DNA of 19,104 nt from positions 1-19,104 of the forward strand of contig JAHQWW010000073.1 in the NCBI GenBank assembly GCA_029856365.1, written 5' to 3'. The notes beneath the pieces were generated by a model, which was given only the letters and a program-made list of their open reading frames with translations, ran no database searches and had not been told where the DNA came from. A program made the translations under genes and the position numbers. Source of the stretch: Candidatus Hodarchaeota archaeon. Its GTDB lineage: Archaea; Asgardarchaeota; Heimdallarchaeia; Hodarchaeales; Hodarchaeaceae. This document shows, piece after piece, positions 3,130 to 19,104 of this stretch; the first letter of the stretch is position 1, and each line of letters starts with the position of its first letter.

Positions 3130-4965
3130 TTGATTTCAGCCAAGATGGTTATAATGTTTAAGATACCAAATGAAGACATTTGTAGAATCTTAGTCCACAA
3201 GATAGAAGATGAATATGATCTTAAAAATCGATTAAATCGTTATAAGAGTCAATCAGAGCTGATTACCCTAGCTTCGAATCAAGGCTTAACTGAAATTGAT
3301 GATGCAGTGCGTGCGCTTTTTGTAGCTGATTTCATTGTGACTGCTTCCGAAGTTCCTTCTGGTGGAACGGATGACGAGCGATATCGTTCTGTCTTTCACT
3401 CTTTCATCAGAGGTCGTACTCGCTGTTCATCATCAGATTACTTGATGAGAATTTTCTATCTTGCATATAAGACAGCTACCAGCATTCGACGTCAGGACTT
3501 ATTTATGGCTGGTCGGGGATTATCACGGAAGGCTGCATTAGTGCGGTTAAAAGATAGTTATATTACCCCTTACCTTGCAGTGGTATCAGAAATTTTAGGT
3601 AAGGGTTCTTGTGGATGGGAACTAGGCGTATTATCCGCTGCTATGAAAAGAATGTACCCTGACAACGAAATTCAACAATTTGATAATTTACCTGAATACA
3701 TGGAGTATCAAGCATTAACTGAATCTATTTGGCGCTTAATGATAAGTTATAGCGAGAAACAAATCGTAGAAACAAACCCTAATCCGATTATTCCAAATAT
3801 GAATGAGAGTCAAAGTCTTTTACTTCTTGATGCTAAACAAACCTCGCTACTATCTTTATGGAATACTACTCCCCCAAATGCTCTTAAGTTACAAGTCGAA
3901 TTGCCTTCGCTTGTAAAATTCGTAAATCAACCTGTTGATGGAAAACAATTGGTACTTATGAGAGGGAGCATATTAGATACCATGGAACATTTTTTCATTA
4001 TTCGGGATCCTTTTACCCGTGCTAAACCAATGTTTATTATTAAGACACCCGCAGATGAACTTAATCTTTCAAGAGTCCTTACAGTTCTTCATTTACGTGG
4101 TCTTGAACAGCGTGGTTGGAAATCATTGTTTATTTCCAAGGAAGAACCTGTTGTTAGACCAAAAAAAATATCAGTCATTGAACCTAAAGAAATAGTTACG
4201 GGGGTAGAAAAAGAAGAACTTCCATTAAAAGAAGGCTTTTTTGCAAAAATCAAACGAGTATTGTTTGGCAAAAAATCACAAACAATTGTCAAAGAGAAAT
4301 CCGTTCTTAAACCTAAACCACAAAAATTTGAACCAATCAAAGAATTAAAGAGAGAGAAAAAACAAGGTTGGTTACCATTATTTATGTCCCAAAGTTCTTT
4401 CATCGCTCAAGGAATGACTGTTGATGCGGTTGGAGACATGAATCTTTTTGAACTATTTGACACGGTACGAGAAGAAAGCTATTACGTTGTTGGAACCTTT
4501 GAAACAGATTTTAAGAAAACGGACACTTTTTTTTTAACAAGATTAGATACCCTTCCAAGTACAGTGATTACTTTTTTCAATGGTTTAGATCAAGAAATGT
4601 CAAAATTGTATAAATCATGCTTTGGTGATAATCAAATATTAATTGAGGAGCTCTTTTTAATAGCCGATGACGATCAGAAACTTATTATTAGCTTAAATGG
4701 AAATCAAGAACGAGTTGTTGGCACTATTGCTACAACTTCTGTTGAAATTGCAGGGATTTCACAGCATATTGCAGATTGGCAATCAAGAGCTAAAACGGTG
4801 GAATCATTGCAACGTAGATCCTTACATATGAGAACTAATCAATTACTAGCAGCTAGACGCCATACTCCGTTTAATGAGGCGGTAGAAAGAATATATGGGT
4901 CCAATTTGAATATAGAAGCAGCAAGCCTTCTCACTATTGATCAACCTATTTTTTCCTTGAGGTAG
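3130..4965 (+). CDS. Multidomain hypothetical protein: helical N-terminus, central beta-rich domain, amphipathic helix, possible C-terminal roadblock-like domain
   Basis: 611 aa ORF whose true start may be ATG at 3145 or 3154. A Lys/Pro/Glu-rich linker contains EGFFAKIKRVLFGKK. The C-terminal region has an apparent alpha-beta-beta-alpha-beta-beta-beta-alpha pattern. The CDS is secure and the domain calls are tentative. Confidence 0.6.
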   Translation: MISAKMVIMFKIPNEDICRILVHKIEDEYDLKNRLNRYKSQSELITLASNQGLTEIDDAVRALFVADFIVTASEVPSGGTDDERYRSVFHSFIRGRTRCSSSDYLMRIFYLAYKTATSIRRQDLFMAGRGLSRKAALVRLKDSYITPYLAVVSEILGKGSCGWELGVLSAAMKRMYPDNEIQQFDNLPEYMEYQALTESIWRLMISYSEKQIVETNPNPIIPNMNESQSLLLLDAKQTSLLSLWNTTPPNALKLQVELPSLVKFVNQPVDGKQLVLMRGSILDTMEHFFIIRDPFTRAKPMFIIKTPADELNLSRVLTVLHLRGLEQRGWKSLFISKEEPVVRPKKISVIEPKEIVTGVEKEELPLKEGFFAKIKRVLFGKKSQTIVKEKSVLKPKPQKFEPIKELKREKKQGWLPLFMSQSSFIAQGMTVDAVGDMNLFELFDTVREESYYVVGTFETDFKKTDTFFLTRLDTLPSTVITFFNGLDQEMSKLYKSCFGDNQILIEELFLIADDDQKLIISLNGNQERVVGTIATTSVEIAGISQHIADWQSRAKTVESLQRRSLHMRTNQLLAARRHTPFNEAVERIYGSNLNIEAASLLTIDQPIFSLR

Positions 4966-5060
4966 TCTCAATATTGAAATCTAAGGAAAAGTTCTTGGTG
5001 AAAGGATGGGCTGTTAAAAGCTTACATTCATAGATTTTAATAAACCACAATCAATGGATA

Positions 5061-6716
5061 ATGAGGAGATTGACTAATATTAAAAAAAAAGAAAATAATA
5101 GATATGGAAGGCTTGTTTTTTATATGATTGCGTTATTGCCCTCCCTATTTACCTGGGTATTACTCATCGCTTTTGTTTTAATTTATTCTTTTGATATGAT
5201 GGACTATATTAAGGACAATAACATTTTTCCTGGGGCCCATGATTTCTTTATTATGATTATCTGGGCGGTTCCTATAGCGATTACTGGATCTTGCTGCGGA
5301 ATGGTTATAGATAAATATCCTAAGCATTTGGGGAAATTCACGACAGTTGGACTAGTTGGAAGTTCAGTCTTTCTAGTAATTGATATGATTGCATTACATT
5401 TAGTAAATGGATTATTCTTGATCATCGCAGTATTTTGCCTAGGGGCCTTTATGGGGATTTTAACTATTACTGCTCATACTATATACGGATCATCGATCAA
5501 ATGGACTCATCGTGGTAGAGGGTATTCATGGGCGATATTTGGTGGATTATTTTTTTGTATTTTATTGCTTTTAGGAACTGAAATTTTTAATTTAGACTTT
5601 TTCTTTTCTTTTTCCCTCATCTCCTTTCTTGGTAGCTTAATAAGCATTACTTTCTACTATTATACCCAAGACTGGCCCTTCTGGGAAAATGATCCTTGGG
5701 TGACACCTCTATTCCGTATTCTTAAGCGAGTATCCGTTGACGCATATTATTGGACGCATGCCCTTGTATATTTAATGATTGGCCTAACTTTCGGTTCACT
5801 TGCGCAAGCTGGTATTATCCTTGGTTTTAGTACCTTTCTTGATTTTAGTTGGTACAAATCTTTTTGGTTCGTTGTTCTTCTTGGAAGTTGTTTCTTTAGT
5901 CTCCCCTCTGGATTCCTTACTGATTATTGGGGAAGAAAGACATCAATAATTTTAGCTTTATATGGGATAGTTTTTGCTTCATTAATAGTTGGGTTGTTTA
6001 ACGACTATTCAACAACATTTTACTTATCTGCATTGATTATTGGTATATCTTTTGCTTTGATTCACCCAGCTTTGGATGGAAGTTTATGGGTAGATTTAGC
6101 TCCAAGAGATTCCGTTGGTAAATATTCCTCTCTTAATTTCCAATCTCTTGGTCTAGGAATTTACATTGGCTTCCCCTTAAGTTACTTATTTGTTTCTGAA
6201 CAAATCTTAGATATTACGTTGATTATGAACGTCTTCATCTTGCTTGGGTTAGCCATACTTGCTGGTTTACCATTATTTTGGATTGGAGATTCCTTTCCAC
6301 CATTAGAATTTTTTCTATTATTAGTCATTAATGACGCTGGAATGCCTATTTTTCATTATGATTTCGGGAGAGAGAAAGAACTTAAAGTAGATCTTCCTTT
6401 GATTTCTGGTGCCCTCTCAGCAGTAGGATCGTTCATGCTAGAAGCAACTGGAGAAGAAGGGGCAAACCTGAGTCTAGTTCGTCATGGAACTCACTTCATA
6501 ATTTCTGATGAAGGGAAGATGGGGCTTTCTGCAGCAATTTTTGCTAATAAAAATGACCCTGAACTACATAATCTCTTACAAAAGTTCTTACGGAAATTCG
6601 AGGAGAAATTCAAAGCTATTATCCCTACTTGGAGCGGAGACCTTAGCCAATTCTATGATGCAATAAATGACGCTGAACAAATTTTTGGGCCATTGGTGAC
6701 TATCCAAGTAGACTAG
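5061..6716 (+). CDS. MFS-fold 12-TM protein fused to a C-terminal longin-like domain
   Basis: I count 12 TM segments. Motif A GFLTDYWGRK in the C-half, degenerate GMVIDKYPKH in the N-half, and DLAPRDSVGK after TM10. The soluble tail from about residue 413 reads LLLVINDAGMPIFHYDF...LISGALSAVGSF...LLQKFLRKFEEKF...WSGDLSQF, which is typical of Asgard longin-type domains. Confidence 0.85.
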   Translation: MRRLTNIKKKENNRYGRLVFYMIALLPSLFTWVLLIAFVLIYSFDMMDYIKDNNIFPGAHDFFIMIIWAVPIAITGSCCGMVIDKYPKHLGKFTTVGLVGSSVFLVIDMIALHLVNGLFLIIAVFCLGAFMGILTITAHTIYGSSIKWTHRGRGYSWAIFGGLFFCILLLLGTEIFNLDFFFSFSLISFLGSLISITFYYYTQDWPFWENDPWVTPLFRILKRVSVDAYYWTHALVYLMIGLTFGSLAQAGIILGFSTFLDFSWYKSFWFVVLLGSCFFSLPSGFLTDYWGRKTSIILALYGIVFASLIVGLFNDYSTTFYLSALIIGISFALIHPALDGSLWVDLAPRDSVGKYSSLNFQSLGLGIYIGFPLSYLFVSEQILDITLIMNVFILLGLAILAGLPLFWIGDSFPPLEFFLLLVINDAGMPIFHYDFGREKELKVDLPLISGALSAVGSFMLEATGEEGANLSLVRHGTHFIISDEGKMGLSAAIFANKNDPELHNLLQKFLRKFEEKFKAIIPTWSGDLSQFYDAINDAEQIFGPLVTIQVD

Positions 6717-6764
6717 AGATTAGTTTTGAAAGTATCTACTTATGTATTGATTATTGATATACTG

Positions 6765-8204
6765 TCAATCATCCGAAATTCCAGAAAGATACTTCGCGAT
6801 TTTTTTTCGTTCATCGATATCATATTGTTTAAGGATAGCTATGTCTTCCATAACTGGACTACCACCACCGTGTATTCCTGCAACGGCTACAACACCACCA
6901 ATACCAGAACAAAGAGTATCTGACAGTGTTCTGAAGAGCTTGTACACATTCTCAGCAGAGACATCTTCTTTTCGTTTGATGTATTTTTGCAGAAAAGGAC
7001 CAGTTATTTCATTGAAAAAGTCTTTTTCGTAAGGAAGAGTGGCAGGTAATCCTCCAGCAAGATCAGCTAGAGTTTCTAGTTCGTGGTAATAATTTTTCCC
7101 AGCGTGTTTTCGCCCTACATTACAGAAAACTGGATCAGGAATCATTGTCCCTGATTCATCTTTTGTCGCTTTATAGGCTGAGGCAATTCCCGCTGCATTA
7201 ACAAGTTCAGCTATGCTAATTAAGTCTGCGAGTTTAGATTGAACATGTTTTTTATCTTCTACACCATTGTACTCTGTAACTAGCGCACTATAGCCCATAA
7301 TAATATCGGTAGTCGCAGGTTTACATCCAGTATAACTATGCCGGTGGTACAGAGCAAACAACAGAGCTAACCAACCCCCAAACTGATGTTCACCCTCATA
7401 ACCCCCTAGAAACACCCTATCGTTTGGAATAAATGTATCATCAAAAATGATAAAATTTTCAACATCACCTAGATCTGCTGAAGGACAAGGCGTGTGATCA
7501 CGTGGTCTCATATTAGACGCTCGTGTAACAAGATAAACGTTATCCCAATCCCCAGGAATGGCAAAAGAAACTGCATATTGATCCTCCTCTGAGGTCAAGA
7601 ATCGTGTTGGAGTAACGATGATCTCTTCAGCTACCGCAGCTGCAGTAATATGATTCTTGGCTCCCCGAACCACAATACCATCATCACGATGCTCTACAAC
7701 ATGAACGTACAAATCAGGATCAGCTTGTTGATGAGGCCTCAGAGATCGGTCTCCTTTAACATCTGTCTGCGCACAAGTCGCAATAATGTCATTTTTTTGC
7801 CAGAATTTTAGATACTCTAGCCAACGTTGATGATACGGTTTACCCGTCATTGTCTCCGCACGATGAGTTATAATTGAGAGCGCATTCATTGCGTCAATGC
7901 CCATGCAGCGAAATATGCATCCTCCTGTATAACGACAAATCCTTCTTGTCATCTCTTGTTTCTTGAGAAGATCATCAACAGATTGATGAATATGAGTAAA
8001 TCTATTTACAGTCTCACCAGTAATATGGGACTTGACAGATAGTAAATCTTTAAATTCTGGTTCATTAACTCTATCTAGGGTTTGAGAAATTGTCTTTATT
8101 ACTCCATCCATTCTCGGATCTTTCCGACCAACCTTCTCCCCATTAATGAATAGATTATGCTTCATTTTGTATAAGCTCTCTCTATATTCTTGAGAAGTCT
8201 TCAT
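6765..8204 (-). CDS. abfD: 4-hydroxybutyryl-CoA dehydratase / vinylacetyl-CoA isomerase family protein (AbfD-like, HpaB fold, [4Fe-4S]+FAD)
   Basis: GGCIFRCMGIDA (CxxxC), QTDVKGDRSLRPHQQADPDLYV, GIVVRGAKNHIT, YHRHSYTGCK (His and Cys cluster ligands), DLAGGL and HGGGSP. ATG at 8204 preferred over TTG at 8213. Confidence 0.85.
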   Translation of the reverse strand: MKTSQEYRESLYKMKHNLFINGEKVGRKDPRMDGVIKTISQTLDRVNEPEFKDLLSVKSHITGETVNRFTHIHQSVDDLLKKQEMTRRICRYTGGCIFRCMGIDAMNALSIITHRAETMTGKPYHQRWLEYLKFWQKNDIIATCAQTDVKGDRSLRPHQQADPDLYVHVVEHRDDGIVVRGAKNHITAAAVAEEIIVTPTRFLTSEEDQYAVSFAIPGDWDNVYLVTRASNMRPRDHTPCPSADLGDVENFIIFDDTFIPNDRVFLGGYEGEHQFGGWLALLFALYHRHSYTGCKPATTDIIMGYSALVTEYNGVEDKKHVQSKLADLISIAELVNAAGIASAYKATKDESGTMIPDPVFCNVGRKHAGKNYYHELETLADLAGGLPATLPYEKDFFNEITGPFLQKYIKRKEDVSAENVYKLFRTLSDTLCSGIGGVVAVAGIHGGGSPVMEDIAILKQYDIDERKKIAKYLSGISDD

Positions 8205-8410
8205 TCCATTCAACTCACGATCTTTTTATCAAAAAAAGGTCTTATGTCTCAGGATTTTATATTTTTTATATTTTTTTTCAGAAAATAGTATTTGAAAAGG
8301 TAATAAATCTAGTTTTATTTTCTGCATTTGTGAGAAACTTATTATATTTAAAATGTCCAATATACTCGCTAATAACTCAAATAATCACTATAATCATCTA
8401 GAAATATAGT

Positions 8411-10414
8411 ATGAGCTTAATGAAAAGATGGATAAGTATTATTAAATTCAGTAAAATAAAGATAACTATCCCTCTAGCTCTTTTTCTTGTCTGGTTATTC
8501 TTTTTATCTGTGATGACACCAGTATCTGCTGATAAAAGAAGACTGGAGTGGTACTTCAACAATTTTGACTATGAGGATCGGTTAAAGATCAGGAAAGCAA
8601 TGGATCATGCTATCCCCCGAGACCAAATCATAGATAGCATCCTGAAAGGACTTGGAATTAAAATTGCCAGTCCCGTTGAGGCGAACGATGGTGCGTACAA
8701 CCCAACGGTTACAGCTCGAGATTTCGACATAGAAACAGCGTTAGACTACATGGAAGACGTTTTTGGTTATAGATACGATGCTTCTGCCGAGACGGGTGAA
8801 GAGAGATTAAAATACTTCAGCATGGTACTCATGACTCCAGTATCTCGTACTGATAGGATGAAATGGGTTGCGTTAACCACCCAGACGTTTCAAGAAATCG
8901 GGATTGATGTGACACTAAAGTTCATTTGTTGGAAATTTGCTGTTCCTCTTGTATTCAGCCCACCTATTGAAAAACAAGGGTTTGACTATATACACGGTGG
9001 ATATGATGGTTTCTTTATTGATTGGACTGGTGTTCCTGAATCTAATGTCAGACAATGGTTTAGCAAGGACAATTGGGTACCTGCAGGATCTAACCTTGGA
9101 TATGTCGATAATATAGAAGTTGATGAAATCCTTGTGCGAGCTTTAGAAAGCGTAGAAAAAGCTGATCGATTAGATGCCTTCGACGAATTCCAACAGTGGT
9201 TTAAAGACAATCTTCCCTACTTTATTGTCTTACAACATATAGATTTGGTCGTTTATGATCCAGATTTGAAAGGAATGTCAGCTAGCTTCGACTATCCCAA
9301 CTATGGAAACTGGACTCATCCAGACAATGTGGTAGTGGTTCAAACTCCATGTGACTTTATAGATTTTAATCCATTTCTGGCTGGTTCCTATTATGATTTT
9401 CTTGCGATGAATGCAAACTATGAAACCCTCATACAGCGATACCCCGATGATCCTGAGACATACTACGGGGCTGTAGCAGAAAGTTGGGAACATAGCGATG
9501 ACGGATTAGTGTGGACCTTCGATATCAGAGATGGCATTCAATTCAACGATGGTTCATATTGCACTGTTGATGATGTCATTTTCAGCTATAAGCAATTTAT
9601 CAACCCAGACGTGGGTGCCTTTGATGGTACAGATATGGCTTATTTTCTAAATGAGACTGGTATAAAAAAAATTGATGACAATACAGTTGAATTCACGTTG
9701 AATACGTTCTACGCGTACGCGGAAGGATTAATTGGCGCACATATACCAATCTTATCAGAGACAGAAATGGGAAACGTTCCTGATGATGAATGGGCAACTG
9801 ATGAGACCACCACAGTATACGCACCATTGGGCACAGGACCTTATATGATGGACACAGACAGAACAGACATGGAAACAAGTTTCGCTGTAATGGTTCTGAA
9901 TCCCTATTATGATGGCTCATTGCGTGATCCTAACGGTCAGTTCGATAATCCAGATATGATCGAAGAAATTCAAGTCAAATTAATCACATCAGTCGCTTCA
10001 TGTATTGTTGAATTAAAAGCTGGCACGATAAACGTTATCGACAAAAATGTGGCTCTCCAACCTTATATGGATGAACTCAATGGCACTAAGTCTGGCCACA
10101 CATGGGGTACGATTAAAAAAGTCCTTGGATGGGGTCATCAAGGATTCTATATCAACAATATCAACCCAATTTGGGGTATGAATCCGTTGAATCCCCGCGA
10201 GATGTACCCAGAAGATTATGAGCTGGAACCAACAATTACAGAGACGAATACAAAAATGATAACTAGCATAACCAGTCCTACAGATACCAAGCCTACTTCT
10301 CACACTAGTCTAATTAGTTCACAATCACCTTCGATTACACCTAGCTTTGGTTATTTAATTACCCTTGTTCTCCTAATGAGTAGTTCAATCATAGTATTAC
10401 GAAGAAGACAATAA
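8411..10414 (+). CDS. ABC transporter substrate-binding protein, family 5 (peptide/nickel), circularly permuted, with signal peptide and C-terminal membrane anchor
   Basis: Signal peptide ending TPVSA. Motifs IRKAMDHAIPRDQIIDSILKG, YETLI, AESWEHSDDGLVWTFDIRDGIQFNDG...DDVIFS and PLGTGPY. Ser/Thr-rich linker followed by TPSFG, a hydrophobic helix and RRRQ. Confidence 0.9.
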   Translation: MSLMKRWISIIKFSKIKITIPLALFLVWLFFLSVMTPVSADKRRLEWYFNNFDYEDRLKIRKAMDHAIPRDQIIDSILKGLGIKIASPVEANDGAYNPTVTARDFDIETALDYMEDVFGYRYDASAETGEERLKYFSMVLMTPVSRTDRMKWVALTTQTFQEIGIDVTLKFICWKFAVPLVFSPPIEKQGFDYIHGGYDGFFIDWTGVPESNVRQWFSKDNWVPAGSNLGYVDNIEVDEILVRALESVEKADRLDAFDEFQQWFKDNLPYFIVLQHIDLVVYDPDLKGMSASFDYPNYGNWTHPDNVVVVQTPCDFIDFNPFLAGSYYDFLAMNANYETLIQRYPDDPETYYGAVAESWEHSDDGLVWTFDIRDGIQFNDGSYCTVDDVIFSYKQFINPDVGAFDGTDMAYFLNETGIKKIDDNTVEFTLNTFYAYAEGLIGAHIPILSETEMGNVPDDEWATDETTTVYAPLGTGPYMMDTDRTDMETSFAVMVLNPYYDGSLRDPNGQFDNPDMIEEIQVKLITSVASCIVELKAGTINVIDKNVALQPYMDELNGTKSGHTWGTIKKVLGWGHQGFYINNINPIWGMNPLNPREMYPEDYELEPTITETNTKMITSITSPTDTKPTSHTSLISSQSPSITPSFGYLITLVLLMSSSIIVLRRRQ

Positions 10415-11412: not shown

Positions 11413-12114
11413 TTAAGCTGGGGTCCCCAATAATACTATAGTGTACAGCACATCTGCTGCGGATGTAATTGCATCGGAAGCATTTTCAAAGTTTTTCGCA
11501 GTGTCGAGAAGAAGAAAGTGAGTAGAATATCCATAGCTATCAGACATCCCTAAAATTTCCTCTCTGGCGCGAAAATGAACCTCATCAGCTTCACGCTCAC
11601 GATCTTCAATGATTTGGCGATTATCAAGAATTGTACGATCATCTCGTCCAAGAGCTGAACACATCTTTCGGAAAACACGAACAGATTCTATTGTAAGTTT
11701 ATTTATTGCCTTAAAATAGTTTAATATTGGATCTTCAAATTGTGACATGTCTACATTTAGCTTAGCAAGCATAACCAAATTTTTACTGGCAGATTTTGTC
11801 CAATTTGCTGTTGCATCAGCTAATCGAACAAGACGATATAGTTTTTCCCGAATTTCAGGGGGGAGTACTCCCCGCGCTATTTCATTTGCGAGGTCGTCTT
11901 GGCAGTGATCCGCAGATCGTTCGAGCATACTCACTCGATTATATAGTTTTTCTACACGAGCCAACTCTGGTGAGGCCATGTGTTTGACTAATTCTTCGCA
12001 AGAGGTGAGTGTATCTAAGATTTTCTCATTATGTTCATCTAAACCCGTTAAAATTACTTGATTTCGCCGTTGACGGAACCAATGCAATAAACTACTTTCT
12101 TCATATTTACTCAA
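11413..12114 (-). CDS. DUF47 family PhoU-like putative phosphate transport regulator
   Basis: All-helical with two repeats carrying LERSAD and REREAD, plus GVLPPEIREKLYRLVRLADATANW and FENASDAITSAAD. The TTG start overlaps the upstream ATPase by 8 bp. Confidence 0.85.
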   Translation of the reverse strand: MSKYEESSLLHWFRQRRNQVILTGLDEHNEKILDTLTSCEELVKHMASPELARVEKLYNRVSMLERSADHCQDDLANEIARGVLPPEIREKLYRLVRLADATANWTKSASKNLVMLAKLNVDMSQFEDPILNYFKAINKLTIESVRVFRKMCSALGRDDRTILDNRQIIEDREREADEVHFRAREEILGMSDSYGYSTHFLLLDTAKNFENASDAITSAADVLYTIVLLGTPA

Positions 12115-13201
12115 GTGCTAATACCTTCTTTAAACCAAATTCTGGAGAAGCGAATAAACGTGCTTCGTAGGGATCTATTTGGATGAATATCTTTTCTTTT
12201 TCTTCCAATAGAGTCTGGGAATCGATAATTATTAAATCATCAGTTAATAGTTTTACTTCATATCGAATGTATCCCCCCCTAAATCTTTTTCGTAAAATAG
12301 TTCCGCTCAGAGCATTATCTTCTTCCTGAGAGCAATAGTTCATGGTTTCAGGACGGAAAGCCAAGATAATACTCTCACCCTGATCAAAATCTCCTTTTAA
12401 GCCCTGAAGATCAATGTATTGATTATTTCTAAACTCAATTCTATAAGAATCTTGAGCTCGTTTCTGCTTGATCATTCCCTCTAAGAAATTACTTTCTCCC
12501 ACAAAATTCATTGAGAATAAAGTATGTGGATGTTCGTATAGCTGCTGGGGAGTTCCAACCTCGACAATCCGTCCAGCTCGAAGAATAACTAATCGATCAG
12601 ATATTGACATTGCTTCTTCTTGGTCATGTGTGATGTGCACGGCAGTTAATCCTAATTTTTTTACCAACCGTCGGAGTTCATACCGAAGAGACACCCTGAC
12701 TTTATAATCTAATGCTGAGATTGGTTCGTCTAATATTAATAGCTTTTCTTGATTAGCGAGAGCTCGTGCAACCGCTGTTTTCTGTTTGGCTCCTCCACTT
12801 AATGAACGGGGACGTAATTGCTTCTGTTCAAGTAGATCTACCAATCTGAGCATTTCTTCACTTATTTCCCCTCGAGTTTGTTTAGGTACATTCCTTACAA
12901 AAGGTCCGTAAGCAGCATTTTGTTCAACTGTCATATGAGGAAATATTGCGATACTTTGGAAAACCATTGCAAAGTCTCTTCGTTCAATAGGAATATTTGC
13001 CACATTTTTTCCATCAATCAAGATCGTTCCGTGTGTTGGTTCGACGATTCCAGTGATGCAATTTATTAATGTGGTCTTTCCACATCCTGATGGACCTAAG
13101 ATACCAACATATTCCCCTTCTTTGATTTCTAAATCTATTTCTTCAAGAGCTTTAATACGTCCAAAATACTTAGAAACCCCTTTTAACTGCACATTTGGCA
13201 T
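12107..13201 (-). CDS. ABC transporter ATP-binding protein (PotA/CysA/FbpC-like, C-terminal TOBE)
   Basis: Walker A GPSGCGKTT, Q-loop MVFQ, signature LSGGAKQK, Walker B LLILDEP and ITHDQEEA. Confidence 0.95.
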   Translation of the reverse strand: MPNVQLKGVSKYFGRIKALEEIDLEIKEGEYVGILGPSGCGKTTLINCITGIVEPTHGTILIDGKNVANIPIERRDFAMVFQSIAIFPHMTVEQNAAYGPFVRNVPKQTRGEISEEMLRLVDLLEQKQLRPRSLSGGAKQKTAVARALANQEKLLILDEPISALDYKVRVSLRYELRRLVKKLGLTAVHITHDQEEAMSISDRLVILRAGRIVEVGTPQQLYEHPHTLFSMNFVGESNFLEGMIKQKRAQDSYRIEFRNNQYIDLQGLKGDFDQGESIILAFRPETMNYCSQEEDNALSGTILRKRFRGGYIRYEVKLLTDDLIIIDSQTLLEEKEKIFIQIDPYEARLFASPEFGLKKVLALE

Positions 13202-14365
13202 TCAAGTCATCTCCAGTCTTTTAGCTACTTCCCAAGGTTCAAAGAAATAATTTATATTCTCAGAAGGGATTTCTAATCTAACCTTAGTTCCAACGTTGTA
13301 CTGATGAAGATCTGATGAAGGAATACTTACATGAAGCTCTTTCTTTGAAAGACCTTCAACCTGAACAGCGAGATTTGCCCACTTTCCCAAGAAGAAAGCT
13401 TGTTCAACAGTTCCCTCAAAGATATTAACCTTAAATTGTGACTCAGGCTTAGTCCTTATTAAAGGCGTCACAAGGATTTTTTCTGCTTTAACTGCAAGCA
13501 CAATTTCTTCATCTGAATGGCTCTCTTGTTTATCAAAGCTACGGATAATATCTTTTGGTTTAATGGTTATTTCATGTTCCCCCGCTTGAACCACTTCCCC
13601 GTTATTTTCATTTCTTGCTCTTGTGGCTAGTACTAAATTTGTTGTACCAAAAAAGTACGCTGCGAATAATGTGGAAGGATAATCATAGATTTCTTCAGGG
13701 ATATCAAATTGGACTATTTTTCCCTCATTTATAACAAGCACCCTATCAGCGACTGCAATTGCTTCCTCTTGATCGTGAGTAACATGAAATGTCGTTTTTT
13801 CAAGATCACTTACTAATTTTCGTATCTCAGTTCGCAATCGAATACGTAACCTGGCATCTAAGGCACGTAATGGCTCATCTAGCAGGAAAATGTCTGCATC
13901 CGCTGCCATCGCTCGAGCTAAAGCAACCCGTTGCATCATCCCCCCACTTAGTTCATGAGGATATGCATTGTAGCGAGTCCTTAGATTAACTAAATCGAGT
14001 ATCTCGTCTCCCAAGGCTATTATTTCTTCCCATGGTTTATCTCCTTTCATCTTCGGAGAAAAGACCGTGTTCTCCCACACGTCCATATATGGAAAAAGAG
14101 AATAATCTGATGTTTGAGGTAGATATGCCATATTACGTCTTTCAGGGGGAATATTATTTAATAGCTCACCATTCTTGTAAATTTTCCCTGAAGTTGGTTT
14201 AACTAAACCTGCTATCAATTTTAGTAATGTGGTTTTCCCTGCGCCCGTTGGTCCTAGAATCACCACATATTCGCCACGTTCTACTTCTAAATTAAAATCT
14301 TGTATGGCATAAAGCTTCCCGAAGCGTTTATTCAAGTCTTGAATTTCAATATGTGCTTTTACCAT
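13202..14365 (-). CDS. ABC transporter ATP-binding protein (PotA/CysA/FbpC-like, C-terminal TOBE)
   Basis: Walker A GPTGAGKTT, signature LSGGMMQR, Walker B FLLDEP and VTHDQEEA. SD AGGAG at 14374-14378 overlaps the permease stop codon. Confidence 0.95.
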   Translation of the reverse strand: MVKAHIEIQDLNKRFGKLYAIQDFNLEVERGEYVVILGPTGAGKTTLLKLIAGLVKPTSGKIYKNGELLNNIPPERRNMAYLPQTSDYSLFPYMDVWENTVFSPKMKGDKPWEEIIALGDEILDLVNLRTRYNAYPHELSGGMMQRVALARAMAADADIFLLDEPLRALDARLRIRLRTEIRKLVSDLEKTTFHVTHDQEEAIAVADRVLVINEGKIVQFDIPEEIYDYPSTLFAAYFFGTTNLVLATRARNENNGEVVQAGEHEITIKPKDIIRSFDKQESHSDEEIVLAVKAEKILVTPLIRTKPESQFKVNIFEGTVEQAFFLGKWANLAVQVEGLSKKELHVSIPSSDLHQYNVGTKVRLEIPSENINYFFEPWEVAKRLEMT

Positions 14366-14376
14366 ACAATTTTCTC

Positions 14377-16101
14377 CTATGCTTTACGTTTGCCTTTTTT
14401 TGTTACTTTAGCTCTTAGAACGAAGATCAATAGAGAAGAAATTAAAATTAAGATCACTGTTGTGAGAGCCGCGAAAAAATAATCGGGTTCTGCGCCCGTT
14501 ATCAGAGCAACGATGAAAACTGGAGCAGTGATGGATTCAGGAGACACCGCTAGAGTAGCTCCTGTTTCCCCAATACTACGGGTAAAAGACATGATTGCTC
14601 CAGCAATAATAGAAAATTTTACTACTGGAAGAGTAACATGATGAAACGCTTGAATAGGTCGAGCACCTAAGCTTCGTGCAGCATCTTCATATGCAGGATC
14701 AAGTTCAGCTAATCCTCCAATGGTATTTCTAACGATGAAAGGAAATGTCATGCTAATATGAGCCATAATAACAAAAAATAATTCATTTGGGGGAAAAATG
14801 ATTTGTGTAGTCCAGAATAAGCCCACACTAAACCCTAATGCTGCACTTGGTACGACATAAGGAATATCGACCAGTGCATCAAGAATACGTGAAAAAGGAT
14901 GGTTTTTACGTGTAATTAGAATAGCCATTGGAACTCCTAAACAGACATTTACAAGGGTTGCAACAGTAGCTACTATTACTGATAATAAAATACTTTGGCT
15001 AAAAAGAAACCAATCAGCAGTGAGAAGTTTTTCTATACTTATTCCTTGAAAAATGTACAGAACTAGGAAAAATGAGGGAATTAAAACAAAAAATACTAAG
15101 AAACCGAAAGATAAAATTGAACGAGCTTGTGGTGCCGTACCCTCGCTAATTCTCCATTCAATGCTTGGAAACACTCGTCGAAATGGTAATTTTGCTTGTT
15201 TTGCTAGAATTTTAGCAAGAAAAACTAGACATAATGCGATACAGATCATTAATACACTCGCAAAAGCCATTCCAGGTAATAGATAACCAAGCGGTTCCTT
15301 CCCTGCGGCAATAGCATGTTGGTAATCACCTTTCCAATTTCCAATTAGTACGGTACTCGTCTGTTTAAGGCTACCAATTGTAGCTAAAACGGTCATCGCT
15401 CCACCAGTATCACTTAAACTCTTAGCGAGACTTAACACCATTGCTGTCGCAACTCCAGAGCGAAATAAGGGAAGGGTAACAGTTCTTGCTGCTGTAAACT
15501 TGCTTGCTCCGCATGTTCGAGCAGCGATTTCTAGTGTGATGTCAATCTCATCTAATATAGCTGCTAATGAACGAATGACATAGGGAAATGTTGTAGTAAA
15601 ATGGAAGAGAATTAAAATAGGTAGAGCGTCTCGGACGAAATTCAAAGCAAAAAATGGTTTCACAGGGACATTTGGAGTCACTCCCCAAAAAAGTGCGACT
15701 GAGAAACCAAGCCCAGCTGTAGGGACAGCCAAAGGGAGTTCAATAATACTATTTAAGATCGATTTGAACCGAAATTCTTTTCGCACTAGTATCCAAGCAA
15801 TAGGAAGACCAAATATTAGGTCTACTATTGTTATCGTAACTGACACAGCAATTGAATACATCAGTGCTTCCAAAATCTCAGACATTATTGTTGGATTAGA
15901 AAGTACCTCAGATTGGATAATAACAAATTCCAAGACCGCATAGATTAAAACAAAAATCGTTGGGAATAAGACAAGAGTAAAAAAAAACAAAATAATAAAA
16001 AAATACCACGTGTAGGAAACACTAGGTTTTGATACGTATTCAATAAATCTAGTTTGAAACTGTTTCAGCTGTTGTTGATGTGAACTGGGAATCAGTGCCA
16101 T
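14377..16101 (-). CDS. ABC importer permease with two fused type I TM domains (CysT/CysW, ModB/WtpB, ThiP/FbpB-like)
   Basis: Two homologous halves: ELPLAVPTAGLG / DIPYVVPSAALG, FPYVIR / FPFIVR, EAA loops LEIAARTCGA / YEDAARSLGA, and AKSLSDTGG / TRSIGETGAT. Confidence 0.93.
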   Translation of the reverse strand: MALIPSSHQQQLKQFQTRFIEYVSKPSVSYTWYFFIILFFFTLVLFPTIFVLIYAVLEFVIIQSEVLSNPTIMSEILEALMYSIAVSVTITIVDLIFGLPIAWILVRKEFRFKSILNSIIELPLAVPTAGLGFSVALFWGVTPNVPVKPFFALNFVRDALPILILFHFTTTFPYVIRSLAAILDEIDITLEIAARTCGASKFTAARTVTLPLFRSGVATAMVLSLAKSLSDTGGAMTVLATIGSLKQTSTVLIGNWKGDYQHAIAAGKEPLGYLLPGMAFASVLMICIALCLVFLAKILAKQAKLPFRRVFPSIEWRISEGTAPQARSILSFGFLVFFVLIPSFFLVLYIFQGISIEKLLTADWFLFSQSILLSVIVATVATLVNVCLGVPMAILITRKNHPFSRILDALVDIPYVVPSAALGFSVGLFWTTQIIFPPNELFFVIMAHISMTFPFIVRNTIGGLAELDPAYEDAARSLGARPIQAFHHVTLPVVKFSIIAGAIMSFTRSIGETGATLAVSPESITAPVFIVALITGAEPDYFFAALTTVILILISSLLIFVLRAKVTKKGKRKA

Positions 16102-17422: not shown

Positions 17423-19104
17423 CTACTTCTCACCCTCTTCTTTTATTTCCTTATCATTTAATTGAACAATACAAAGACGCCCTTCAACAACATCGATTTT
17501 AGCATTGATCTCATTTTCGTTAATCATTTCATAAACAAGATTTTCTAACTCTTTGGGATCAATTTCGACACTGCGTGCTAATGTTTCGATTGGTACACTC
17601 CCAAACTTAGTTATTTTCGCTGCAAGTTCAATACGTTTTTGTTTTCGAAGAAGACCATCCGAAAGTGTTCCAGCAAACGTTAATACTCGTTGAATATCTC
17701 CCTTTTGGTAAGCGTGAAAAATATCGTAAACAATATGTCCAAATGAACCTAGATTTCGTGTTAGTGCATCCTGTACAAGTTTGATTCCCAGTTCACTCTG
17801 GTGCTCTATTATTTCCAGTGCTACCAAAGTTGCATCAAATTTAATGAGACCAAGCCAGAGTTCATCTAGTTTCACCCCAGGTGATTCATAATGACTTAAG
17901 TACGTTCTAATGGCTCGTCTTTGTAATGTTACATTTTGGGCAGTAATCATCCCGATTATTGTACGGACACGTTCTCGTTCAGTAGAGGAAAGAGATTTTG
18001 AAATATGATAATCAACTACTTGTGCAATCAATTGTTCTATGAATTGGACATCTTGTTTACTCATTGAAATAATAATTGAAACTCGTTGAGCAAAAGCTAC
18101 ATAATCAGGAGATTCGAGATCTGTTAATAACCAATCTAATAGCTCTTTAATAAATGTTAAAGCTCTAGGCTTAAGAAATTCAAGATAGACTGGGATAAGT
18201 TGAATTGATTGCGTTTCCAACGCTTTAGTGAGCTTTTTTGCAGCATAAATTGCCATATCTGCATTCTTTGAGATAGCATCTCCTATTCCTTGAATTAATT
18301 CACTCTCAAGATCGATCTTTTCTAACTTTAAGAGCTTTTGAATCGCTTCAGTAAAAGATTCTTGACTTTCATATTGAATACTAGGTTCTGCTCTGTCATT
18401 TTCCCTTGAAACAGAGTCTAAAACGTCATCATCGATAATAACTTTAGATTCTTGCTCTGATGGTGGAAATTCATCAGTTAATTCCTGCATGAGTCCTTCA
18501 ATCATTTCTTGTGTGAGGGTCAAGGAAGAATCATCAAAATCGTAATTTTTTCTTTCTGTATCTAATAATTTTACTGGTGGGGGAAGAGTTTCACTTCGGC
18601 CAGCCTCAATTACAGTTCCAGGTTCCGTAACAACTTCCTTACTAGTATCTGCTTCTATGGTATCAGGTTCTTCAGTTTCAGGTATTTCTTCCACTTTGTA
18701 GGAAAGCCGGGTGACAAGATCTTCGAGTGTTCGTTTCTCATCAGTTTCTTCAGATTCGACTGAAATATCCTTGATGGATATTCCCATACTCTTTAGAATT
18801 GGTGATAAGCCTTTCTTGCCTTTTGTTTTAGTAAAATCTTCCATAATAACGTTAAAGCCTTTAGAACGGAGAGATGTAACCTCACTAGCTTCATCGGGGC
18901 CAACTACAAGGTGATCCACTATCCCATCACATAATTCTGCAATTCCAAGTAATGTAGGTTTGACTCCTAATAATTGAAGAACGAATTGCTCCCGAAAGCT
19001 GAAATGACTAGGATAAATCAAGGCAGCTGGGGCTTTTGATTCTTTAACGGTTTTAGTGAACTCCTTGTGCAAGAGAAGGAGAGCTAGTGAACAAGGATCT
19101 CCTG
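17423..19104 (-). CDS. 5'-partial multidomain protein: CofD-like N-terminal domain, acidic linker, helical repeats, C-terminal PCI/winged-helix domain
   Basis: The frame stays open beyond the called TTG (19072) to the window edge, reading GDPCSLALLL|LHKEF. The C-terminal FGSVPIETLARSVEIDPKELENLVYEMINENEINAKIDVVEGRLCI matches the PCI consensus. The N-terminal part resembles the C-terminal third of CofD. Confidence 0.75.
   Translation of the reverse strand, partial: GDPCSLALLLLHKEFTKTVKESKAPAALIYPSHFSFREQFVLQLLGVKPTLLGIAELCDGIVDHLVVGPDEASEVTSLRSKGFNVIMEDFTKTKGKKGLSPILKSMGISIKDISVESEETDEKRTLEDLVTRLSYKVEEIPETEEPDTIEADTSKEVVTEPGTVIEAGRSETLPPPVKLLDTERKNYDFDDSSLTLTQEMIEGLMQELTDEFPPSEQESKVIIDDDVLDSVSRENDRAEPSIQYESQESFTEAIQKLLKLEKIDLESELIQGIGDAISKNADMAIYAAKKLTKALETQSIQLIPVYLEFLKPRALTFIKELLDWLLTDLESPDYVAFAQRVSIIISMSKQDVQFIEQLIAQVVDYHISKSLSSTERERVRTIIGMITAQNVTLQRRAIRTYLSHYESPGVKLDELWLGLIKFDATLVALEIIEHQSELGIKLVQDALTRNLGSFGHIVYDIFHAYQKGDIQRVLTFAGTLSDGLLRKQKRIELAAKITKFGSVPIETLARSVEIDPKELENLVYEMINENEINAKIDVVEGRLCIVQLNDKEIKEEGEK

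Follow-up and report, generated by a model that had tools for sequence, protein, structure and literature searches.

A transporter with a longin tail and a candidate longin/roadblock-type neighbour in a Hodarchaeales-type archaeon, probably joined by inherited gene order rather than as an obligate module

In eukaryotes, longin and roadblock domains serve as platforms for the switching, at membranes, of the Rab, Arf and Rag GTPases. A described system close in outline to the locus studied here, genes A and B of a 19,104-bp contig of an Asgard archaeon, is that of Ragulator, the Rag GTPases and SLC38A9, which combines roadblock dimers of LAMTOR proteins, the C-terminal roadblock domains of the Rags and a transporter as sensor, although the likeness is one of analogy only. 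SLC38A9 is not a major facilitator superfamily (MFS) protein. Longin and roadblock domains generally dimerise, and the Asgard roadblock, longin and Roadblock-Longin proteins of Tran et al. 2024 (PMC10933270) are of the same phylum and fold as A and B. As far as the accessible part of that paper goes, these are single-domain proteins or fusions to GTPases or to TRAPPC3, and the terms 'transmembrane', 'transporter' and 'MFS' do not occur in it. A further relevant group are the longins of the GTPase-activating protein (GAP) type, namely FLCN, SMCR8 and NPRL2, in which strand 2 opens with a GP motif that adjoins a conserved arginine finger; according to the part of the source available, look-alikes exist in Heimdallarchaeia and the eukaryotic members are found at membranes near amino-acid transporters (PMC12290439). 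A carrier-fused longin domain gives a direct handle on how Asgard archaea use their many longin and roadblock copies.

Here, we analysed the entire contig (the window, C86) of an Asgard genome that is 84% complete; homologues of both genes are labelled Hodarchaeales, Heimdallarchaeota or Promethearchaeota in their source records. Gene A (3130-4965, + strand) is an open reading frame (ORF) of 611 codons with a TTG start, and gene B (5061-6716, +) is an ORF of 551 amino acids (aa). The two are separated by a 95-bp spacer (4966-5060), and the next ORF, which encodes an HpaB-family protein (6765-8213, -), is convergent with B across a gap of 48 bp. An earlier note on this DNA had described the same arrangement of two co-oriented genes followed by a convergent one, and had read the pair as a membrane signalling module of the Rag/Ragulator type. 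Our analysis supports the domain assignments behind this interpretation but not the module itself. We put a probability of roughly 60% on the reading that A and B are genuine genes which evolve independently of each other and encode membrane-associated proteins of the longin/roadblock fold, and that inherited gene order, not an obligate module, places them side by side in a portion of one Hodarchaeales-type genus. The fold assignment is strongly supported for B and moderately for A.

The first 404 residues of B (5061-6272, +) form an MFS transporter core, in which residues 64-370 match the Pfam model MFS_1 with 54.8 bits (cut-off 33.4), while NCBIfam returned no subfamily for B. A crude hydropathy scan, which does not give an exact count, indicates some 11-12 hydrophobic spans preceded by an N-terminus rich in K/R, and on these grounds the tail that follows should be cytoplasmic. 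The AlphaFold2 (AF2) model of this tail (6273-6716, +; residues 405-551), built from 30 tail-only sequences from the loci, reached a predicted local distance difference test (pLDDT) score of 87.4 and a predicted template modelling (pTM) score of 0.83. It shows the order beta-beta-alpha-beta-beta-beta-alpha-alpha, with DSSP strands at 13-19, 25-29, 68-71, 74-80 and 86-91 and helices at 41-59, 96-112 and 130-146 of the tail. Foldseek matched it to 38 PDB chains at E ≤1e-3, with TRAPPC1, Bet5 and Trs23 at the top at about 1e-5. Therefore, judged by its modelled fold, the B tail is a true longin domain, and the description of B as an integral membrane MFS protein with a longin tail, made in the earlier note, holds.

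At the level of sequence, the tail stands well apart from the longins already described. Pfam returned no family for it even at E 10, a paralogue of the tail gave a Sybindin match at E 0.064 (13.8 bits, cut-off 25), and in a profile search of the PDB, whose best hit (E 0.014) was a designed protein, TRAPPC1 and Trs23 came no higher than E 0.8-1. When the tail was compared with eukaryotic longins, including those of TRAPP (Bet5/TRAPPC1 and Trs23/TRAPPC4), Sec22, VAMP7, Fuzzy, Mon1-Ccz1, the AP sigma and mu subunits and SRX, identity was only 7-17%. In contrast to these proteins, whose Pfam families it does not match, the tail has its own signature of H475-G476 and W524-x-G526, accompanied by G427 and F435; G427, F435, H475, W524 and G526 are each invariant in 30/30 family members, and G476 is found in 28/30. 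Furthermore, the domain forms one chain with an MFS carrier, which is not the case for any of the matched solved chains. The tail is also the best-conserved part of B, with 61-95% identity in 76 of 82 retrieved proteins (own record aside), and MFS_1 is present in all 82. Searches of the open-access literature and passages of PMC10933270, PMC12290439, PMC13734099, PMC12962969 and PMC7997004 revealed neither an account of an MFS-longin fusion nor one of family A.

The tail was also compared with the GAP-type longins. It shares with FLCN, SMCR8 and NPRL2 an invariant glycine and a proline at the start of strand 2, the site of the GP motif. However, the tail has G427-x-P429 instead of GP (35/38 MFS-longins), the proline being present in 19/30 of the wider family, and Arg474 is poorly kept there as well (19/30). 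The assignment of the tail to this type was rejected on these residues.

B is only one of seven copies of the tail family in its own genome. Three of these are MFS-longin proteins (B and a tandem pair on contig C162), and the others are a polytopic membrane protein (C36), a P-loop ATPase (C9) and two soluble proteins of ~250 aa, which carry the tail-type domain at the N-terminus. Across Asgard archaea, a query with the B tail found matches in 362/399 genomes at E ≤1e-5, usually several in each; the carrier-fused longin is part of this family of membrane-tethered longins. Many of the matches listed form the C-terminal end of open frames of ~750 aa; four of these were translated, and each has 7-8 hydrophobic spans and ends in IDHGD ... 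WSG, as the B tail does. Strong matches to MFS-longins (E <1e-25) are confined to the family and order of the window, and one MFS-longin was found in another class.

The C162 paralogues lie in tandem at about 38258-41715 (+; loci L021 and L022), with tails 54% and 44% identical to that of B. They are followed by a hexapeptide-repeat transferase, and a small GTPase gene lies ~3.8 kb upstream (C162:33955-34473, -).

Among the alternatives, the one that survives best concerns B and leaves A out as unrelated. It holds that the tail acts only among transporters, by homodimerisation or by pairing with the tails of the tandem paralogues, and thereby controls oligomerisation, stability or turnover with no GTPase involved. 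We regard this as a minority possibility, perhaps one chance in several. It is consistent with the presence of three MFS-longin genes in the genome, with the tandem layout of two of them, which recurs across the genus, and with the general tendency of longin and roadblock domains to dimerise reported in the accessible part of PMC10933270. However, the same tail family is also found on small soluble proteins and on the C9 P-loop ATPase, which points to a more general docking role. On C9 (- strand), a small GTPase gene (65253-65750) and two Robl_LC7 genes (64254-64511 and 63890-64150) come after the gene for this longin-bearing ATPase (66020-67723). This was the only place among those examined where the tail family stands beside GTPase and roadblock genes. 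It hints that the tail family at large may be linked to GTPases, although with 57 GTPase and seven tail loci in the genome such a neighbourhood could also arise by chance. The ATPase is CbiA/ParA-like by a weak match, and the run from ~63890 to 67723 (-; locus L024) is operon-like.

Gene A encodes a protein of a different kind. Its start is probably the ATG at 3145 or 3154, which makes the protein ~603-606 aa rather than 611, since ATG 3154 (MFKIPNE) is where both the alignment and the profile of the family start; an Atlas record starts at residue 6. The hydropathy scan found no transmembrane span in A, in keeping with a soluble protein. The AF2 model from 41 sequences (pLDDT 84.9, pTM 0.82) comprises a helical N-terminal domain (3172-3759, +; residues 15-210), a first alpha/beta domain with the longin order beta-beta-alpha-beta-beta-beta-alpha (3811-4134, +; residues 228-335), a disordered basic linker (4138-4365, +; residues 337-412) and a C-terminal longin/roadblock-like domain (4378-4899, +; residues 417-590, or about 450-595 by another delimitation). 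The helical domain is the most conserved part of the protein and accounts for 12 of the 25 residues that are invariant in A, among which charged ones are frequent; D67, E74, R84, K114, R129 and D142 are invariant. Since the pTM is 0.82 despite 87 disordered residues, the model suggests that the three folded parts are held in a fixed arrangement as one compact body.

In the linker, where pLDDT falls below 50 at 337-369 and 380-412, 22 K/R stand against 12 D/E over 79 residues, and length and sequence vary within the family. An amphipathic basic-hydrophobic motif, GFFAKIKRVLFGKK (4234-4275, +; residues 369-382; consensus KxGFFxKIKxxxFGKK), is nevertheless kept in 40 of the 41 aligned A relatives amid the variable linker, and residues 370-378 are modelled as a helix. 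The amphipathic helix claimed for A in the earlier note is thus borne out as a prediction.

The C-terminal domain of A is arranged as one helix, a beta-beta-alpha-beta-beta-beta core and two further helices, and ends in an Arg-rich helix; its modelled elements are H423-434, E451-460, E465-470, H475-497, E503-511, E517-524, E528-535 and H562-575. This corresponds to the roadblock/LC7 order alpha-beta-beta-alpha-beta-beta-beta(-alpha) known from MglB and LAMTOR2/3. The earlier label 'roadblock-like' is therefore fair, as the domain has both the N-terminal helix of a roadblock and C-terminal helices, but the second domain of such type at 228-335 had been overlooked. On the model, the C-terminal domain is probably of the longin/roadblock type, while for the middle domain the same assignment is only slightly favoured. 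At the present scores, longin and roadblock cannot be told apart for the modelled C-terminal domain.

The structural match scores of the A domains lie below the level of a safe fold match, and Foldseek with the entire A model found nothing in the PDB at E ≤1e-3, the best hits being lipocalins and FliM at E 0.17-0.3. Sequence searches gave a similar picture: A has no Pfam or NCBIfam family, its three pieces searched against Pfam at E up to 10 gave MTP_lip_bd as the sole match (E 0.014, below cut-off), the A alignment found one PDB sequence (uL3, E 0.16), and the Protein Atlas offered no usable match. A second alternative, which we consider rather unlikely, takes A as evolutionarily unrelated to longins and roadblocks. 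In that case, the alpha/beta domains would be convergent two-layer sandwiches, the function would reside in the conserved, charged helical domain as an enzyme or binding module, and the neighbourhood of B would be coincidental. For the longin/roadblock fold speak the length of the model, the fitting order of strands and helices and the lack of any competing alpha/beta fold.

Homologues of A form 76 clusters in a search of 5.8 billion proteins, nearly all of them 570-635 aa long and without a Pfam domain, and the family has 85 representatives among 1.84 billion proteins. It was matched in 65/399 Asgard genomes, 63 of which belong to the class of the window, Heimdallarchaeia; outside this class, it was found in 2/316. 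By family, A is present in 17/21 genomes of f1 in addition to the genome of the window, 1/2 of f2, 31/31 of f4, 3/3 of f5 and 10/12 of f6, and in 0/12 of f7 and 0/1 of f3; in f4, f5 and f6 the B-tail query gives weak matches, at E 1e-6 to 1e-11. Family A is thus an architecture confined to Heimdallarchaeia and unannotated in Pfam and NCBIfam, and it is the new part of the findings. Distant paralogues of 676-758 aa (P0221, P0223 and P0224; in the own genome C204:15503-15928, -, locus L028) share the helical N-domain (~42-178, 21-25% identity) and have a different C-terminal part; one also has the first alpha/beta domain.

Compared with known proteins, A places its two longin-type domains, which we propose to form a pseudo-dimer, in one chain, whereas Ragulator, TRAPP and Mon1-Ccz1 build such an arrangement from two chains. 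Its putative anchor is the amphipathic helix, whereas Ragulator is anchored by lipidated LAMTOR1. Asgard structures (PDB 7yh1, 9jue, 9jq8, 7f8m and 8yqg) appear in the structural match lists of both the A and the B-tail models, and the tandem roadblock and longin domains of 8yqg, in one chain, resemble the two-domain layout of A. In contrast, a helical N-domain and a linker motif like those of A are not described for the Asgard proteins in the accessible part of PMC10933270. Family A could be an archaeal counterpart of the multi-longin GTPase regulators. We also considered A as a subunit of the tri-longin Rab guanine nucleotide exchange factor (GEF) type, to which Mon1, Ccz1, Fuzzy, Inturned and HPS1/4 belong and which has three consecutive longins and heterodimerises on Rab, and rejected this assignment; the A model has two longin-type domains.

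Whether A and B are coupled was judged from gene order in relatives, counted once over species-representative contigs and once by genome within the genus; the two sets overlap, so these counts are not independent. On the representative contigs, B lies 3' of A at 4 of 19 A-loci (L001, L002 and L013, and L005 with one ORF between), and one more locus ends at A, leaving the position of B unreadable. Within the genus, both genes are placeable in 14 genomes. A stands directly 5' of B on the same strand in six of them (G000, G074, G071, G057, G075 and G076), with gaps of 43-100 bp in close relatives; one opposite-strand ORF intervenes in G073, and the genes are present but apart in seven (G060, G072, G061, G062, G058, G069 and G070). 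The pair is therefore adjacent or nearly so in 7/14 genomes and apart in 7/14. Elsewhere, the order is ambiguous at contig ends in one genome (G063), A occurs without a B orthologue in three (G067, which is 96% complete, G064 and G065), B occurs without A in one (G068, 74% complete), and both are missing from three (G059, G066 and G077). The separation is well illustrated by G060, in which B (84% identical) adjoins an HpaB gene and a phoU-ABC block, while A lies on another contig between g157, a small neighbour gene described below, and a plain MFS gene.

Neighbouring genes also fail to tie the two together. The wider block of phoU, two ABC ATPases, a permease, DUF389 and the PCI gene recurs 3' of A without B, and where B is apart from A no partner recurs beside it, the neighbours being a ferredoxin, an HD-domain protein, a beta-helix protein and another MFS gene; the HpaB gene adjoins B only in the closest relatives. 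A Pfam search of 60 neighbouring ORFs of A at 13 loci found no small GTPase and no roadblock protein. In the A-B spacer itself, a TATA-like TTTTAATAAA can be read directly ~25 bp 5' of the B ATG. The spacers of six relatives do not conserve it, and the alignment of all seven spacers shows no promoter-like conserved element.

As the earlier note had stated, the window contains no GTPase gene: none of its 14 ORFs of at least 80 aa matched a small GTPase in Pfam, the Arf and Gtr1_RagA models included. Genome-wide, there are 57 Arf, 32 Gtr1_RagA and 9 Robl_LC7 model matches, of which none falls on this contig. Since the genome has only ~1 GTPase per 74 kb, zero is expected for a stretch of 19 kb, and this absence is uninformative.

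Because the A-then-B order survives at 43% A identity, the adjacency is probably ancestral in the genus and was lost repeatedly. Such repeated loss fits either an inherited, dispensable gene order or a facultative link. Several points weigh against our reading of separate evolution and membrane association. The survival of order and strand at 43% A identity (G057, locus L013) is more than random drift of gene order would commonly spare, and could reflect a real link that was later lost elsewhere. Sequence profiles tie A to no longin or roadblock family. The linker motif could dock as a peptide on a partner instead of binding a membrane, its hydrophobic moment of 0.48 being unexceptional next to the maximum of 0.60 among all windows of A. 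Finally, any GTPase partner of A or B is putative.

If A and B nevertheless evolved separately, as we favour, each may be given a role of its own. B would be a secondary carrier whose cytoplasmic longin tail may serve as a docking surface for another longin or roadblock domain or for a small GTPase, and such docking would couple the carrier to a switch in the cytoplasm or fix it at a site in the membrane. The amphipathic helix would hold A on the membrane, where its two longin-type domains could act as an intramolecular pseudo-dimer, a platform for one of the small GTPases of the genome. A profile-profile alignment of A with the B tail gave a probability of 0.5% (E 0.12). Complex prediction of full-length A with the B tail returned 0.00 and 0.00, the mark being 0.32; run without controls, it is evidence neither way. 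As the proposed pairing is unsupported, the value of finding A and B side by side is limited.

The interpretation in the earlier note went further, taking A as the scaffold and B as the transceptor of a single signalling complex at the membrane, an analogue of Ragulator/Rag and SLC38A9, in which the C-terminal domain of A heterodimerises with the B tail and the GTPase is encoded elsewhere. Both proteins have dimerising folds, the genes are co-oriented at a short distance here and in close relatives, the adjacency recurs in 6-7 of the 14 genomes and extends to the pair at 43% A identity, and the genome offers many candidate GTPases. However, unlike the Rag-Ragulator system, A and B are not consistently coupled, and a Rag-type GTPase is linked to neither gene, neither on the contig nor among the 60 A-neighbour ORFs. 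Conservation of the adjacency, whose lack the note had named as refuting its reading, was found in about half of the same-genus genomes carrying both genes and was lacking in the rest. With the genes apart in half of the genomes and split between contigs in G060, with A retained but a B orthologue missing in a genome that is 96% complete, with A widespread in families that give weak B-tail matches only (it is present in four other families of the class), and with B possibly served by its own TATA-like promoter, such a conserved complex is improbable. Similarly doubtful is a looser version, in which A would be a single-chain, two-domain platform held on the membrane by its amphipathic helix and would serve one of the ~57 small GTPases as a GEF, a GAP or a scaffold. 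In the ancestor of the genus it would have been co-expressed with B, whose tail would dock on A or on the same GTPase. If true, this would represent a prokaryotic transporter-coupled GTPase switch, working like, and predating, the lysosomal SLC38A9-Ragulator or transporter-longin-GAP systems.

If A has a fixed partner at all, two other genes are better candidates than B. The 157-aa protein g157 (22-495, -) is 72-94% identical across loci, more conserved than A itself, and a membrane protein of ~190 aa (g190) accompanies it beyond what is here the contig end. Both genes are divergent from A and lie within 3 kb upstream of it in 14/19 loci, which makes them the best-kept neighbours of A. The g157 loci include L003, L006, L007, L009-L013, L016 and L017. 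Pfam and NCBIfam returned no match for g157; in the Atlas, it falls in hypothetical clusters only, with a weak lead to a C2 domain (rank 25, score 0.89, 30% of members).

Other genes near A are less regular. A co-oriented gene directly 5' of A (2213-2989, +) encodes a 258-aa protein with weak winged-helix matches (HTH_20 and FUR) below cut-off and a sub-threshold BORCS6 match, probably due to chance (16.8 bits against 35). It is 5' of A solely in the closest relatives (L002 and L004; inverted in L001). At locus L008 of one relative (4068-7703, +), the gene beside A encodes an MCM helicase interrupted by an intein that includes a LAGLIDADG endonuclease (matches to LAGLIDADG_3 and Intein_splicing).

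Beyond the HpaB gene, the window carries a block of PhoU_div, two ABC ATPases and a permease (11413-16101, -), which stays 3' of A without B in several relatives. A 549-aa protein (17423-19072, -) carries at its C-terminus a PCI domain, which is eukaryote-like and scores 35.1 bits over a cut-off of 22, and a PCI protein is found 3' of the DUF389 gene in locus L016 as well. The ORF at 8411-10414 (+) encodes a family-5 solute-binding protein, whose NCBIfam matches lie in two segments with their order exchanged: residues 46-293 correspond to the models' C-terminal part and residues 308-546 to their N-terminal part.

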